Numbered from the stretch's first letter, positions 29,058 through 61,751 are shown. The stretch: 64,000 bases of DNA from Ostreococcus lucimarinus (GCA_000092065.1 CP000587.1), one strand, 5' to 3'. Notes: generated by a model not told the origin, from the sequence alone. A program made the numbers and translations.

Positions 29058-29173
29058 GCCGAGGCGCGACGTGCGGCGCGAAGCGAGCGTCGACGTCGTA
29101 CGCTTACATTCATTTACAATGACTCTACTTCGACAGTTGTGACAAAACGGTTTTCGCGATCGTTACTAGCGCT

Positions 29174-29653
29174 CTACGACGTCGCCGCGCTCGCGGCGGA
29201 CGACAGAATGATCCCGACGATCATGCCGTACAGCGCCAACGCCTCGGCGAAGATCAAAATCAAAATCACCCCGACGAACAATTTCGGCTGTTGCGCGTTC
29301 GCCCTGACGCCCGCGTCGCCCACGATCCCGATGCACATCCCCGCCGACAGTCCGCTCAGGCCGCACGCCAACCCAGAGCCGAGATGCGCGTATCCCTGGA
29401 ACAGCGTGTACGACGACGCGTCGATGTTCGTGCTGATCACCACCGCGATGATCAACCCGTATATCCCGAGCACGCCCGCCATGACCACCGGGACGATGGA
29501 TTTCATCACCAACTCCGGCCGCATCACCCCCATGGACGCGATGCCGACGCCGGACTTCGCCGTGCCGTACGCCGCGCCCATGCAACTGAACACGAGCGCG
29601 CTCGTCGCGCCCATGAACCCAAAGAACGGCGCGACTTCATCGCTCGTCGACAT
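29174..29653 (-). CDS. VHA-c: V-type H+-ATPase 16-kDa proteolipid subunit c
   Basis: Track ORF 29174..30031; the upstream 126 codons are Arg-rich. ATG at 29653 gives [74 protein letters not shown]...[39 protein letters not shown] (159 aa, four TM, conserved Glu in TM4). Confidence 0.9.
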
Positions 29654-29930
29654 CGCGCGTCGGATGTCGCGTCCCGCCGTTCGCCGCTCGCCCGGTCGTC
29701 GCGTTCGCGCCGTTCGTTCGCGCCGTTCGCCGCGCGTCGAGGTGCGCCGTCGCGCCGTCGCGCCGATCGCCGATCTCGAGATCTTCGCGTCGATCGAGGG
29801 CGTCCACGATGGTACATCTAGGGTTGTGCGACGCACAACCCTAGACATCGCCGATTTTTCGCCCGCGCGCGTCCGACGGTTGGCGCGATGGACGCCATCG
29901 CGTCGCGCGTCGCGTCGACGCGCGCGCGCG

Positions 29931-32900
29931 ATGCGCGCCGACGGCACCGCCGGCGACGGCGCGGTCGTCCTCGCGCGGCGCGACGTCCGCGCGCCCCACG
30001 TCGGCGACGACGACGACGACGGCGCGCGCATCGACGTCGCGTTCGCGACGCGCGACGACGCGGCGGACGGCGACGACGACGGCGCGACGACGCGAACGTC
30101 GCGCGGCGTCGTCGTGAGCTACGCGACGAGCGCGCGCGCGTGCGCGTCGACGCGCGCGGACGCGCGCGGGAGGTTCGAAGCGCGCGCGCTGCGCGTGGAG
30201 GGCGCGACGGGCGAACGCGCGGCGTGGGCGAGCGGGACGCGCGCGACGGGGACGCGGCGACTCGCGGCGGCGTTCGGACGAGAGGCGCGCGTCGCGACGG
30301 ACGACGACGAGGAGGCGGTGGTGTTCGAGGCGAACGTGCTCGCGATGTGCTTCACGCGAGAAGGGGCGATGGCGTGCGCGATGGACGACGGACGCGTGGC
30401 GACGCGAAGCGCGAGCGGCGGCGACGCGGGGACGCGGCGCGCGCGCGAAGGCGAGGCGAAGCGCGCGATCGTGAGCGCGGAGGACGGTGAGGACGGCGCG
30501 TGCGGGGCGGTGGCGGTGTGCTTCGACGGCGAGAGCGTGGTGTACGTCGCGCGGGCGGCGGTGGACGAAGCGGTGGACGCGCTGAGACATCCGGCGCGAG
30601 CGCGCGCGACGAGCTGGCGCGGCGGGACGTTGGCGACGCTGTGCGCGGACGGCGCGCTCAGGCTTTGGATGCGCGCGAACGGGCGGACGGAGTTGACGTG
30701 CACGATTCAAACGCCCAGGGGTGGGCTGGTTCCGGTCGTCGCGTTCGATTGGTTGGAGACGAGCGAGACGAGCGATAGTTTGTACGATCACGCCATCATC
30801 GGCGCCGACGGCGCGAGCGGGATTCACGTGTGGACGCTCTCCGACGTGGACGCCGCGCATCCGCTCAGCGCGCGTCGACCGGTGGTTTCCCATCGTGGAT
30901 CGATGACGTTTGAACGCGCGATGGATTTGACGCTGGCGGATGGAGTGGTGATTCGAGGCAGTTTGACGCAAAGCGACGACGACGTTCGCGTGCTCTTGGC
31001 GTCGAGGAGACTGGGCGTCGTCGTCGCGCGCGCGGCGCGAGATCGCCCGAACGTTTTAGAGAAGTTGTACGGCGTGTCTCTCCGTGGACACGCGACCACG
31101 ATCGTGGACGCGCGCGTGCACCCGACGACGGGCGTGCTCACGACGAAGGACGCGTCCGGAGTGTGTCGAGCGTGGAGACGCGACGCGCGCGGCGAAGTCG
31201 AAATCGCCGACGAAACGACGGACGCCGACGCGGCTGAGGCGATCGAATGCGCGCGAATGGAAAGATGTGGATCCGGCGCATCGGTCGCGGCGCGCGCTCA
31301 CGTCGGAGGTCGCGACGTGGAAGCGTCGAGCGATGGAAAGAGGTTTGCGTTCGTGGATGACGAAGGACGGCGCGTCGTCGGCGCCGTCGCCGGCGATTCG
31401 AAAGTCATCTTGGAACGCGTCGACGCGACTGCGTCAGTTCCGCGAGCTTCAGCCATATTTCGTTGGTTCGACATCGGGGGCGGTGCACACGCGCTCGCGA
31501 CCGCGATGGGGACGGTTTTAGAGGTATACGCGCCGTCACCATCGCTCTACGCGTCCAAGAAGACTCCGTGGCGGCGAATATTGCGCGTCGACGTCGCCGA
31601 ATTCGCCGGGCCGACGCAGAGCGCGATTTCGACTTTGACCTGGAGTCTTCTCGGAGATGTCGTGTACGTCGCCATCGATTGCGTGATACTCACCGTTGGT
31701 TTTGAGGGCGACGACTCGAAGTGTGGCGTCGCGCGGCGCGCCATTAGAGAATCGAAGAATCTACCCTCGTATCATCCGCGCGTGCTCATCGACTGGCTCA
31801 AGCGCGGGGAGCTGGATCGAGCGCGAAAGTCTCTGCGCGCGGTGATGAAGTACCTCGCCGCGAATGATTTTGACTCGCCGTGTCCATCGATTCCCCCGAG
31901 TGAGTTATGGGTCATGGATGACGACGTCGAAGACGTCACGGTGGCGTCGCCGGCACCGACGGCATCGACGGTGGACGTGCCCGAATTCGACATGTCTGCG
32001 TTCGGAGCGTTTGGCGGCGGCGCGCCCGCCGCGGCGACATTCTCGTTCGGAGCGGACTTCGATCAAAACGCAATGACGTCTACATCGCCGTCGACGGTTA
32101 ACGCTCGACGAGCCGGCCATGGTGACGCGTTCACGCAGCGCGAAGCCGAAGACGCGACCGAGTTACTGAGTTCGCTCGCGGATAAACTAGCGCTCGCCCC
32201 AGCGGAACGCGTGCAGTTACTAGGCGTTATCGACGCGCTTCGCAACATTGAGAGAGGAATTGCGACGCTTGGAAGCGCAGTGGATGAACCTGGCCGACGA
32301 TTTGCCGCGCTCTGGCACACGCGACGTTTGCGCCGCGTGAACGATCACGAAGGACCGTGCGGACAAGAGTTGGCTTGGGCGGCTCAGTGCGCGACGACCG
32401 TCGAACTTTTAGACAACGTACTCGATGGCTCGGCAGTGGACAGCCCCAACGCGGATTGGATGACGGTAAAAACGCTTGGCGTGCCGATTTGGTTGCGCGA
32501 TGATGGGACACTGCGAAGTCTGATTGAAGAGTGCGCCAAAGGAGAGTTTGCGAGGACGAAGAATGCCGACGATTGCGCCCTTCTCTTCGTGTGCGTCGAT
32601 CGCGTCAAGGTGCTGGCTGGGTTATATAAGGCGACGCAAAACAAGCCGCTCTACGAGTTTATGTGTCGAGATTTCAGCGAGCAGCGTCATCGCGACGCTG
32701 CGCTGAAGAATGCTTACGCATTACTGTCAAAGCATCGATATTCATTCGCGGCGGCGTTTTTCATTCTCGGCGGTCAACCGCTCGATGCGGCGTCCTTGGT
32801 GTGGAAACACGACCGCGATTTATCGCTCACGCTCGTCATTGCCCGGCTCGCGGCGAAGAAACACGTTGAAGGTACGCATTCAACGGTCGGGTATCTGACG

Positions 32901-35042
32901 AGTGACGTTGTGCCTGTGCTTCAGAATGATATTGCGCCGACGATGTCGGATCCGTGGACTCTCGCCGCGTTGCGTTGGCTCGCCGGCGACTTTAAAGGAT
33001 TTTTTTCATCCATGAATTCATTGATGGAAACGTACGCTGTGGATGCGACGGATTTACTGGTGCATATCGCATCAAGCTCGCGTGAAGAAGACACGGTTTC
33101 GAATGCGAAGACATTGTTGCGGTGCTCATCGGCGACGTTGTTGCATCCGCTGGAAGCGCTCGGCATGCCTTTGGCCGCACTCGAACGATTGCAGTCATGC
33201 GGGCAGGACTCCATTGAAGACGCTTGCAGACTCGCCGTAGGCTCGTTGCTGGCGGGACAAAAGTCAAGTGACGTCACTGACGTTGCACTCGAAGTATTCA
33301 CGCGCAAGCCGTGGAGTTTGAGTTCGGCGACAATGCGTTCAATTTTGCACCGAAGGTTGGACGTTGAACGTTTCGAAGGATTCGACGCGAATGAACGCAC
33401 ACTGAAAGATCTCAACACGTCTACACCCGTGAAATCGTTGCACGTAAAAACACCGTCTGTGCTGCCGACCGAGATTCATACAGTGAGCATTCCTCGCGTG
33501 CCGAGCGGACAAGACTTGACCATCAGTGGATCGCCGACGGAAAAAGTAGCTACGGCGCGAAACGCGTTCAGTAAACTTCGAAGACTAAGCGTGAAGGCGA
33601 AACGTCAGAAAAATTTCGGTATTGGAGAAAGCGCAGGAGATGACTCGCCAACTACGCCAAGATCGCCAGAGTTCGACAGTGGGACGAGGCAAGTTGGAAA
33701 TGATGACGCATCGGCCAAAGCTCGAGTCTTGCGAACGCCCGTCGACGTCGCTTCGTTACAAAACGACGGCTTTTACGACATATGCTTCAATCACGAGGTG
33801 CCCTACGAGTTAGGGTGCGCCAGCGTTCGCCAAGGTTTATCCGTGGTCAATCTTCGAAAGTTGAATGAAAACGATAACGAGTCGCACAAGGATGCGTGGG
33901 CGGTGCTCTTGCAAGCGCAACCGCCCATTTCAGGCTTCAAATCGTCCATGAATTCTTGGCTCCACGTAGAAGATGTGGCGTCTACGCCGGCGTCACCGCG
34001 AGGTGGTCACGGGCGCGAGCACGAGTGGGCGACACATGCAGGATTGGACATGACGTCGCTCACAGGAATCATCCCGCAGTCTCAAAGCGAATCCGTCGGG
34101 CGATCTCGAGCAGCGATTACACGAGAGCCAGCAAACGATGTCGTTGCACGAAGCGTCGCCGCACACCCATCGCGAAGCTTTTTCGCCGTCGGGACTTCGA
34201 TGGGTGGTGTGCAGTTGTGGGATTTTCATGGCGAAAATGCAGATCGATCGGCGGCAGTTCTGTCGCTCGGAGGCAAAAAGTCGACTTCCGGCACGGGAGC
34301 GAGCATGCGCTCGCTCGCGTGGTCCCCGCATGGCGCTCGTCTTGCGGCGTGCGCTTCCGATGGCAACGTCACGTTGTGGCTCGGTGACGCCCCGGACGTA
34401 GAACCGGCTGCGAGTAAAATGTGCGGATTTAAAGGTAGCAAGACCGAAGACGTGCTGTTTCTGTCGACAAACGTCATGGCTGTCGCGAGCTCGACTGGAA
34501 GTTCACTACAAAGGGCGCCCGAGTGCGTCACGCTCTGGGACGCCCTTCAGCCTTTTCACGCCTCGCCTGGGGTCATTCGTGCTCATTCTGGTGGATGTAC
34601 ATCACTCTCTCAGTTTCCATCACTCGTCGCTCCTCACGGCGTGCCCTGGCCTTTCCTCATCACCGGCGGTTACAACGGCGACGTCGCTGCTCACGATTTG
34701 CGAATGCTCGGCGGCGACGCCGAATCCACCGTGCTGTGGCGCTCATTCCCGCCACAAACGTCTACCATCACCTCCATAGCCGCAATTCACCACGAAACTA
34801 CCCCGCTCGTCGTCATCGCCGACCAGTCCGGCGATTTACTCGCCCGTTCTGCCCTCGACGGCGCCGAGCTGCAGCGCGTCAAATCCGCGCACGCGCCGCA
34901 GAAATTTCTCACCCCTCGCGGCGGCGGCGCCTTCGCCTCTCTCGGCGCTTCCAAAATCATCCCCATTCACGCCGGTATCTTAAGTGCCGGCGGTGACGGC
35001 ATCGTCCGTTGCTTCCGTCTAGACAAATCTCGCGTCGCCTAA
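29931..35042 (+). CDS. Rav1/DMXL (rabconnectin-3)-like WD40 protein, putative RAVE-complex V-ATPase assembly regulator
   Basis: Track ORF 29139..35042; its 5' third overlaps the V-ATPase c gene antisense and is an artefact. A plausible ATG is at 29931 ([14 protein letters not shown]...). N-terminal beta-propeller-like segments ([25 protein letters not shown]). The central region resembles Rav1p_C ([18 protein letters not shown]...[38 protein letters not shown]...[37 protein letters not shown]). C-terminal WD40 repeats ([44 protein letters not shown]). The family call is from memory of conserved motifs; the start is uncertain. Confidence 0.55.
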
Positions 35043-35126
35043 CGACGCGAGCATAGTCGCGTTGTCACCGCACCCACAGCGCAGTTCCCCGCCACGATCG
35101 CCCGCACATTCACGCGCGTCTCCACC

Positions 35127-35391
35127 ATGAGCGCCGCCGCCAAGAACAGCGCCGCGTACTGGCGCATCGCCGGCATGAGTTACCTCAAATACGCCAACGC
35201 GTGCGGCGAAGTCGTGCGTCAAAGCCTCAAGGAACCGTTCTTGACCCAGGTGCGAACGATCGATCGGCGTGCGCGCGAAACATCGACTAACGACGCGCGC
35301 GACGCGGATTCAACAGGCCAAGGCGCGCGAAACGGTGTATTACAAGATGACGAAGTACGCCGAAGGCAAGGCCGGGCAATCGGGTGCGTGA
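35127..35391 (+). CDS. ATP5E: mitochondrial F1-ATP synthase epsilon subunit (ATP5E/ATP15), two exons
   Basis: Exon 1 is 35127..35249 (MSAAAKNSAAYWRIAGMSYLKYANACGEVVRQSLKEPFLTQ), followed by donor GTGCGAA. The intron is 35250..35316 (67 nt), ending CAACAG. Exon 2 is 35317..35391 (AKARETVYYKMTKYAEGKAGQSGA*). The 65-aa product is collinear with plant/animal epsilon (AYWRxAGxSYxxYSxICAxxVRxxLKEP...). The track shows only read-through ORF 35127..35420. Confidence 0.7.
35250..35316 (+). other. intron of ATP5E gene
   Basis: GTGCGAACG...TTCAACAG. Phase 0. Confidence 0.6.
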
Positions 35392-35904
35392 ACGATCGAC
35401 GACGGCGGGAAGAAGACTAGGGCTTGAATTTCGCGAGCGGGACGCGCGAGGCGTCGCGAGACGCGCGGGACAAAATTTCACGAATCGGGATCGCGCGCGA
35501 CGCGCGCGACGGTGAAAAACGATAGTTTGACGACGACTGACGACGGATCGCTCGCATCGCGCGCAGTGATCACGGAAGTGTTGCCGAAGTAGACGCCTCG
35601 CGCGCCGCGAGCGCGTTCGCCTTCGTTCCTCCTTTGTAGTGTGTACTTGACTATTGATAGCCCAACAGCCTCGACTTTCACAGCCCAACACCCACCCTGA
35701 CGTAATTTCGTCACGTTCGAGCAAATGAAGTCGTCAAGCAAATGAAGCCGCTCGTCCTCGAGTGATCCTCGAAGAGTCCTCGTCCTCGAATAATCGTCCA
35801 CGAACATGTATCCATCAAATCTTCGTCGCGGAAGCATCCGACGGCGGATCTGTAATCACGAAAAAAAAACGTTATCGCTATTTACATCTTCTACTTCGCC
35901 TGGT

Positions 35905-39913: not shown

Positions 39914-40537
39914 CTAATCGAGACGCTCGCCTCGTCCTTCAACCGCCCCTCGCACGGGCGTCAGCAATCCATTCGCGCTCAAACTAATTGTCGCTGGGTC
40001 CCGCACCAAGTCGAACGCCAACAACTCTAAATCGTCGTCCACATAGCATTTGCCGTCTGCCCGTGTCTCGAGCGAAGACCAACTCCTCGTCGACGCGCCG
40101 ACCAGTCCCCCTCCCTCGTAAATCTCCCGTATCGCCCGCCCGCTCTCCGTATCCAAGATCTTGACGTATCCCATCAGCGTCCTATCTCCATCGCACCAAT
40201 ACACATCCACGACTCGACAGCACGCGCGCGTCTCGTCGTCGGCGTCCCGGAACTCGGCCTCGTCCGTAGCCGCCGGGTGTTCCAACTTCCCGTACGCTCG
40301 ACCGCGCCGCACGCGCGCCGCGACGTACGCCGCGACTTCCCTGTGCAGTATGGGTTTCGGATACACCCGTCCGTTGCGATTCACGCGATCGCACCGTGCG
40401 AGAACGCCGTGTAAATACAGCTCGCCTTTGTTGTTCGCCAACGACCGCGCGAGCGCGTCGACGCGCGATCGGCGCTCGATCTCGGCCTCGTCCGCGAGCG
40501 CGCGCTCGACGGTGTGCACGGACACGCACACGCCCAT
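39914..40537 (-). CDS. HK97-family (peptidase S78/U35-like) prohead serine protease homolog
   Basis: Track ORF 39914..40624 starts at TTG. The first ATG is at 40537 (MGVCVSVHTVERAL..., 207 aa). Composition is non-repetitive. Blocks resemble S78: ELYLHGVLARCDRVNRNGRVYPKPIL (vs GYAxVFN...GxF), GKLEHPA (vs LWxHD), CDGDRTLMGYVKILDTESGRAIREIYEGGGLVGASTRSW (vs DExGL.....L..T..G.....l...G...g.SiGF), DDDLELLAFDLVRDPATIS (vs L.EVSlVt.PA). The identification is from memory of family conservation, not a database hit. Confidence 0.45.
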   Translation of the reverse strand: MGVCVSVHTVERALADEAEIERRSRVDALARSLANNKGELYLHGVLARCDRVNRNGRVYPKPILHREVAAYVAARVRRGRAYGKLEHPAATDEAEFRDADDETRACCRVVDVYWCDGDRTLMGYVKILDTESGRAIREIYEGGGLVGASTRSWSSLETRADGKCYVDDDLELLAFDLVRDPATISLSANGLLTPVRGAVEGRGERLD

Positions 40538-61481: not shown

Positions 61482-61751
61482 CGCGCGTCCCTCGCGATCG
61501 CGCGCGTCGTTCCCGCGATCGCGCGCGTCGCTCGCTCGCGTTCCGCCGCGCGCGGACGATCGAGACCGACGCGCGCGCTCGCGCGTGTCGCGCCTCGGCG
61601 CGGCGTCGTGTGTCGCCGCGCGCGTCGCGCGTCGCCGCGCGCGGTCGTCGCGGTCGTGTTTCCAAATTCTACACACGGACCATTCGCGAGGGTTTAGGGT
61701 TTAGACGCGCGCGCGCCGATCGCGATCGACGTCACGCCACGACTCGACGCG

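Follow-up and report, generated by a model that had tools for sequence, protein, structure and literature searches.

Assembly of the V-ATPase is regulated by RAVE, a complex that acts on V1 subunits, subunit C and the Vo subunit a and not on the proteolipid subunit c (PMC9280200). Its component Rav1 comprises 1357 amino acids (aa) in yeast and has no C-terminal WD40 domain; the Arabidopsis relative LOKI comprises 2513 aa (bioRxiv 10.64898/2026.04.27.721045). In Arabidopsis LOKI/Rav1 mutants the V-ATPase activity is reduced. Functionally, the Rav1/DMXL/LOKI family is characterised by binding to Skp1, to the V1 subunits E/G and C and to the Vo subunit a, and by promotion of V1–Vo assembly. Divergent gene pairs are well documented in Ostreococcus tauri, where 2288 bidirectional pairs hold 3884 transcripts, about half of all genes (PMC4035068). 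A further point of reference is the land-plant telo-box (AAACCCTAA, a short interstitial telomere motif), which in Arabidopsis and rice is concentrated between approximately -60 and +140 relative to the transcription start, in genes that are TATA-poor and housekeeping-like (PMC2576244; PMC1794593). Here we analyse a locus to which all of these systems are relevant. In a 64-kb stretch of DNA from Ostreococcus lucimarinus CCE9901 (the window; all coordinates are window positions), the gene for the V-ATPase 16-kDa proteolipid subunit c (29174..29653, minus strand) and a gene for a Rav1/DMXL/LOKI-type protein (29931..35042, plus strand) stand head to head over a non-coding spacer of 277 nt from ATG to ATG (29654..29930). 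The gene for the epsilon subunit of the mitochondrial ATP synthase (ATP5E) follows Rav1 in tandem.

In our judgement, the best overall explanation for the pairing of c and Rav1 is that it arose by chance and persists through a compact, little-rearranging genome rather than through selection, and we regard this as probable. For comparison 98 related loci (numbered with L) were collected, eight of which (L001–L008) form a population set of nine sequences together with the window. In all Ostreococcus-like loci with enough flanking sequence, Rav1 is flanked by c upstream on the minus strand and by ATP5E downstream on the plus strand (L009–L011, L017, L018, L021 and L023–L027; GC 0.56–0.64, Rav1 identity 50–57%). 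The same trio is present in the Bathycoccus-like loci L029, L032 and L097/98 (GC 0.48–0.51, Rav1 identity about 34%), and one side of it is seen in each of the Bathycoccus-like L030 and L028/L036, which lie at contig ends. It is not only the trio that is kept. The order alpha-amylase, fibrillin, Rad60-SLD, c, Rav1, ATP5E, CHCH, ClpB, enoyl-CoA hydratase (ECH), Peptidase_S77-like, IF-2B/APH is maintained as well, and the collinear block thus numbers 11 genes or more. Since the same loci keep the whole gene order, conservation of the pair is inseparable from conservation of the block, and none of the collected loci was found to retain the pair outside its surrounding synteny; it is kept only where the whole block is kept. 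In Micromonas commoda (CP001323.1) the neighbours of c are a gene for a 106-aa protein and a RING-finger gene, not Rav1. Likewise, neither c nor epsilon was detected within up to 8 kb of Rav1 in high-GC Micromonas-like loci and in about 60 other eukaryotic Rav1 loci. The c–Rav1 pairing thus has one origin and no recurrence, and gene order shows that Ostreococcus and Bathycoccus received it from their common ancestor within the collinear block of 11 or more genes. Conservation in related genomes had been named in a preliminary description of this DNA as a check on its proposal of a common, bidirectional promoter. It holds for Ostreococcus- and Bathycoccus-like contigs, there as part of a block, and does not extend to Micromonas or to the roughly 60 other Rav1 loci.

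The geometry itself is unremarkable. Because about half of the O. tauri genes belong to such pairs, a head-to-head position is normal in Ostreococcus, and the present pair resembles the 2288 bidirectional pairs of O. tauri in its divergent orientation and in a spacer well below 1 kb. It differs from them in that its partners share one pathway, which is uncommon. Spacers in the neighbourhood measure 73–277 nt, and adjoining unrelated genes in tandem or convergent orientation are 73–118 nt apart according to their reading-frame coordinates. All three are ordinary housekeeping genes of the nucleus, with the tight spacing that is typical of this genome. The gene identities, strands, start codons and the spacers of 277 and 84 nt given in the preliminary description all hold. 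The genes have been annotated before, and public genome records already reveal that they adjoin; the adjacency as such therefore adds little.

A competing explanation is selected co-regulation, in which a bidirectional, inverted telo-box would tie the expression of Rav1 to that of c, the most abundant V-ATPase subunit, under selection since the ancestor of the Bathycoccaceae. Both genes act in one pathway (PMC9280200), as the LOKI/Rav1 mutants with their reduced V-ATPase activity illustrate, and the pair persists in Bathycoccus-like contigs as well as across the Ostreococcus clades, even where Rav1 identity falls to about 34%. The low a priori chance of the adjacency also speaks for selection. 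Against it, all 11 or more genes of the block are conserved equally well, and the pair is absent from M. commoda and the Micromonas-like loci, with no recurrence in about 60 other Rav1 loci. The required amounts differ widely too: each pump requires about 10 copies of proteolipid c, and Rav1 is needed in catalytic amounts. In addition, the contacts of RAVE are with V1, subunit C and subunit a rather than with c. Altogether we consider selected co-regulation unlikely. That the adjacency is kept by selection for co-regulation is not supported. Co-regulation of c and Rav1 from a shared promoter, which the preliminary description had regarded as functionally coherent, is a weakly supported hypothesis. 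Some co-expression of the two genes would be plausible as a by-product of the arrangement. As a natural head-to-head pair of a pump subunit and an assembly factor in a transformable organism, the locus would offer an easy test of co-regulation between neighbours in an ultra-compact genome.

The spacer, which presumably contains both promoters and both 5' untranslated regions (UTRs), is the most variable stretch among the nine population sequences. It contains 26 sites with single-nucleotide polymorphisms (SNPs) in 277 nt, most of them in 29803–29862, as compared to 2 in the 480-nt coding sequence of c and 12 in 1570 nt of Rav1 coding sequence. Within this hotspot lies a perfect palindrome of 14+1+14 nt (29817..29845; TCTAGGGTTGTGCG-A-CGCACAACCCTAGA), which is unique in the window and did not occur in shuffled sequences. 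Despite the surrounding SNPs, its telo-box-like cores CTAGGGTT and AACCCTAG are invariant in the population set and only the inner bases vary. A hairpin formed by the 29-nt palindrome was considered and rejected, as the inner arm bases change without compensation and CTAGGGTT/AACCCTAG stay fixed. Because the inner arms vary uncompensated and the outer cores are fixed, the conserved unit is the motif pair and not a hairpin.

Related motifs occupy the homologous place in other lineages. O. tauri-like contigs carry CAACCCTATACCCTAATTCCCAAACCCTAG, the L024 clade AACCCTAAACCCTAGGTGAGGGTTTAGGGTTTAG, the L027/L020 clade about 3.5 copies of CCCTAAA followed by an inverted copy, and the Bathycoccus-like L030 CTAGGGTTACAAACCCTAAATATTAAACCCTAAAC; perfect telomere-repeat units AAACCCTA(A) are found there in L009, L024, L027, L029 and L030. 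In an unbiased hexamer count, ACCCTA/TAGGGT was present in the spacer of eight of nine lineage representatives and 27.6-fold enriched (4.24 per kb, compared with 0.15 per kb over whole loci). The other widely shared spacer hexamers are generic CG-rich words with ratios of 1–3, which leaves the telomere repeat as the only specific word shared by the spacers. Its specificity, its enrichment and its frequently inverted or palindromic arrangement are the features of the spacer that argue for selected co-regulation. The same explanation is opposed by the lack of any telo-box cluster at Rav1 loci outside the Bathycoccaceae and by one Bathycoccus-like clade that has the pair without the motif. A second, clean tandem telomere repeat, GGGTTTAGGGTTTAG, is located in the window at 61690–61705, 47 nt upstream of the ATG of a PsbP-like gene (61752). 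This spacer is likewise divergent, the partner being a gene for a WSD/DDT-domain protein on the minus strand with its ATG at about 61481, and the repeat contains the only other AACCCTA of the 64-kb window.

In comparison to the land-plant telo-box, the algal elements have the same telomere-repeat sequence, with perfect (CCCTAAA)n in L027, L020, L024 and at 61690–61705 of the window. They likewise precede an ATG by some tens of nucleotides, in promoters of a TATA-less, housekeeping type. In contrast, the copy between c and Rav1 in the window does not follow the 9-mer consensus but forms a diverged inverted pair, CTAGGGTT...AACCCTAG. Its spacer is common to two divergent genes, and the targets are not ribosomal or translation genes. 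In the literature searched, the coverage of which was incomplete, no description of a telo-box in Ostreococcus promoters was found. A plant-type telo-box would be bound by a telomere-repeat-binding factor and be required for expression; we know of no such factor or activity in Mamiellophyceae. The prasinophyte telo-box in the c/Rav1 spacer is thus a modestly new detail. A conserved promoter position of such elements in prasinophytes would mean that this cis-element, well known in land plants, goes back as far as the base of green evolution.

As to which of the two genes the motif serves, the evidence from the sequences is mixed. The last telo-box copy precedes the first in-frame ATG of Rav1 by 43–87 nt in five of the six Ostreococcus lineages, and its distance from the ATG of c is 70–440 nt. 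Owing to this fixed distance, the telo-box points to Rav1. One may therefore propose that it serves one gene only, in Ostreococcus most likely Rav1, with a separate core promoter for the other gene elsewhere in the spacer. The second copy in the window, 47 nt from the PsbP-like ATG, matches the position known from plants and would fit this proposal. The proposal agrees less well with the Bathycoccus-like loci, where the motif lies roughly midway at 260–390 nt from each ATG, or with the inverted copies, which suggest activity in both directions. Moreover, Micromonas-like Rav1 genes have no motif, and the c gene of M. commoda has one TTAGGGTT at codons 3–5, a weak occurrence expected by chance in about 5% of cases. 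Service to a single gene is accordingly a possibility that we hold tentatively and consider somewhat doubtful.

Returning to passive retention of a chance pairing as the preferred explanation, we propose the following sequence of events. The two genes would have come together by chance and would then have been retained because the genome is compact and rarely rearranged. By analogy with land plants, the telo-box cluster is probably a core-promoter element of the TATA-less, housekeeping type near the transcription start of Rav1, and it may also serve c on the other strand. From its distribution and position, a role as a shared core-promoter element is plausible. Several observations weigh against such a largely passive history. 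First, chance alone is an uncomfortable explanation. The O. lucimarinus genome has about 7,650 genes, approximately 13–14 of them for V-ATPase subunits. From these gene counts we estimate that a gene next to Rav1 would encode a V-ATPase subunit with an a priori probability of about 0.3–0.4%. The estimate concerns a single observation, made post hoc, and a single evolutionary event. Second, inverted and often palindromic telo-boxes occur in the window, L024, L027, L011 and L030, and this is the look expected of a truly bidirectional element. Finally, the proposed promoter role itself is weakened by the Bathycoccus-like clade L032/L097, where the gene pair is kept in the absence of any telo-box copy, so that the motif is not indispensable. 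No telo-box cluster was detected upstream of Rav1 at loci where it does not adjoin c (Micromonas-like and outside the Bathycoccaceae).

A stronger version would regard the inverted telo-box module as an ancestral green-lineage bidirectional core promoter that couples transcription of c and Rav1 in the Bathycoccaceae. We judge this rather unlikely. If the bidirectional-promoter reading were true, the telo-box system of plants would predate land plants and work in both directions, and the pair would be a selected regulatory unit.

Some further features of these spacers are recorded here. In L021 (6697–7826) the c–Rav1 spacer is about 1.1 kb long and contains repeated 'GAAACTTGCTACAAGTTGTAGCAA' palindromic units, which suggests insertion of a small repeat element. 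In the window, and in all population contigs, an out-of-frame ATG (29888..29890, plus strand) lies between the telo-box pair and the Rav1 ATG, 43 nt before the latter, and begins an open reading frame (ORF; 29888–30490) of 200 codons that is rich in Arg and overlaps the Rav1 start. If transcribed within the 5' UTR, this ATG could, speculatively, damp Rav1 translation as an overlapping upstream ORF. In the M. commoda locus L095, TTTTAGGGTTT is found about 125 nt upstream of the gene for ribosomal protein L37e.

The intronless gene at 29931..35042 encodes 1703 aa. Its assignment to the Rav1/rabconnectin family, only tentative in the preliminary description, is confirmed. A profile scan identified Rav1p_C (PF12234) at aa 609–976 (31755..32858) with E 6.3e-44 and 150.8 bits at a cut-off of 27. 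In the Protein Data Bank (PDB) the top sequence match is yeast Rav1 (9cop_x), with E 9.7e-16 for the single sequence and 4.9e-42 for a profile of seven orthologues. The O. tauri orthologue P0040 (57% identical) is annotated as 'RAVE complex protein Rav1 C-terminal' and 'regulator of V-ATPase assembly complex subunit RAV1/DMX'. The same scan detected WD40 beta-propeller families at aa 1398–1522 (34122..34496), weakly, with E values of 3e-7 to 2e-3 and only ANAPC4_WD40 above its curated cut-off. WD-repeat proteins are also among the PDB matches, so that a C-terminal WD40 domain as in LOKI and DMXL is present. The propeller probably continues to the C-terminus. This region is the best conserved one among the orthologues, with 76% identity to O. 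tauri.

An AlphaFold2 model of aa 1–1200, built from an alignment of eight sequences, has a mean predicted local distance difference test score (pLDDT) of 47 and is confident only over the all-helical part at about 730–1060 (pLDDT 70–90). In a Foldseek search its top match, with E 2.8e-16, is likewise 9cop_x; the second match is weaker by eleven orders of magnitude (1.8e-5). The alignment to 9cop_x spans 1069 columns with a TM-score of just 0.27. The N-terminal half is beta-rich in the model, but at pLDDT values below 50, and a Pfam search of aa 1–623 found no family there. The two N-terminal WD40 beta-propellers of the Rav1/DMXL/LOKI family were thus not detected by Pfam, and this part is poorly modelled. 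The first approximately 130 residues are of low complexity and poorly conserved.

With yeast Rav1 (RAVE; 9cop chain x) the algal protein shares the central Rav1p_C alpha-solenoid, its best match by sequence and by fold. The yeast protein is shorter and, as mentioned above, ends without a C-terminal WD40 domain. That domain is common to the algal protein, Arabidopsis LOKI and human DMXL1/2 (rabconnectin-3 alpha, about 3030 aa), both of which are much longer. The predicted architecture, a beta-rich N-terminal half followed by the Rav1p_C solenoid and C-terminal WD40 repeats, would thus be of a compact LOKI/DMXL type and not of the yeast type. By analogy, the protein is a candidate for the scaffold of a RAVE-like complex in V-ATPase assembly. 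The study of RAVE in the plant lineage has just begun with Arabidopsis LOKI (2026 preprint), and the compact algal orthologue of 1703 aa may be well suited as a model.

The Rav1 start at 29931 follows from N-terminal homology with other Ostreococcus clades, since the N-termini of four of them begin within a few residues and share VVLAR(R/G)D and R-(I/V)-DV-x-F. SNPs in the N-terminal part are distributed 4/2/2 over the three codon positions and are too few to indicate whether this part is coding. The in-frame ATG at 29664 was rejected as a start: it lies 11 nt from the ATG of c, is missing in L006, and the spacer length does not keep its frame. In the metagenome contig L008, 28 nt are missing from the GC-rich, low-complexity N-terminal part (window 30133–30160), which causes a frameshift and a protein call of 1615 aa, and a 12-nt indel is located nearby (window 30228–30239). 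The gap is either an assembly error in a CG repeat or real tolerance of the poorly conserved N-terminus.

On the other side of the spacer, the single-exon c gene with its ATG at 29653 and its stop at 29174 on the minus strand encodes 159 aa, as previously described. Two ATP-synt_C stretches (PF00137, E 5.9e-32) correspond to tandem hairpins with four transmembrane (TM) helices, and the protein is identical to XP_001418919.1/ABO97212.1 of O. lucimarinus CCE9901. Identity is 83–97% to the c subunits of Bathycoccus-like and Ostreococcus-like contigs and approximately 85–88% to those of land plants. The TM4 motif FAEALALYG is present in the translation; the proton-carrying Glu is presumably the one within this motif, a position that we place by knowledge of the family. 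An intron interrupts the c gene after codon 46 in one Bathycoccus-like clade (L029 116–740, L030 3–370); the gene is intronless in another Bathycoccus-like clade (L032 1376–1825) and in Ostreococcus. The c protein of M. commoda (L095 8001–8631) has a 21-aa hydrophobic N-terminal extension (MNVRVALLVACLAACVTGAQA...) not seen in Ostreococcus.

The Rav1 frame is also part of a longer, 1967-aa ORF (29139–35042) with a GTG start, whose first 264 codons are antisense to c. The preliminary description regarded this ORF as wrongly crossing the proteolipid gene, and we agree. The only point in favour of a real 1967-aa protein, with the proteolipid ORF as its opposite-strand shadow, is that the frame is open from 29139. 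The proteolipid, however, has a strong family match and an identical RefSeq protein, whereas the 264-aa extension gave no family match and is not conserved in other species. Furthermore, the distance between the ATGs of c and Rav1 is 278, 279, 280 or 281 nt across the population contigs. Because these length differences of 1–3 nt break the frame, the spacer is non-coding, and the probability of a genuine 1967-aa protein is practically negligible.

Downstream of Rav1, a spacer of 84 nt (35043..35126) separates its stop codon from the ATG of ATP5E at 35127, in agreement with the preliminary description. The gene consists of exon 1 (35127..35249, 41 codons), a 67-nt GT-AG intron with a CTAAC branch motif (35250..35316) and exon 2 (35317..35391, 24 codons and the stop codon), all on the plus strand. 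The end at 35391, as given in the preliminary description, is correct only with this intron removed. The unspliced ORF of 97 aa covers merely positions 1–32 of 49 in PF04627, and the spliced product of 65 aa covers 1–49 of 49 with E 2.2e-20. The intron position is identical in all nine related loci examined. Compared with the mitochondrial F1 epsilon subunit (ATP5E/yeast Atp15), the spliced protein matches the family over its full length and shows nothing unusual.

ATP5E is a subunit of the mitochondrial F-ATPase without a functional link to c or Rav1, the common theme being 'rotary ATPase' only. Any meaning in its position next to V-ATPase-related genes was rejected as a coincidence of names. 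Most simply, ATP5E would be functionally unrelated and be transcribed from a separate promoter that lies within or close to the 84-nt spacer. The short gap might instead indicate that Rav1 and ATP5E are expressed from one bicistronic transcript, and polycistronic mRNAs have been reported in green algae. Leaky scanning past an upstream ORF of 1703 codons with many AUGs is implausible, though, and short spacers are the local norm, 73–118 nt also separating unrelated neighbours. ATP5E also has its own conserved intron and start context. A bicistronic transcript is hence very improbable.

Directly after exon 2 of ATP5E, probably within the 3' UTR, GCTAGGGTCGACG recurs in several Ostreococcus clades (L018 7110, L019 5574, L022 4547, L023 13473, L024 13598, L027 6970 and L020 5837). 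Between ATP5E and the CHCH gene, a 119-aa ORF without a Pfam match (35478–35837, minus strand) is called in all population contigs. Further along the block, the gene at 39914–40537 on the minus strand (L009 15722–16351; L029 13313–14014) encodes 200–230 aa and matches Peptidase_S77. This is the family of phage prohead core proteases, an odd match for an algal nuclear gene, and it was found with E 1.6e-7 in the Bathycoccus-like copy.

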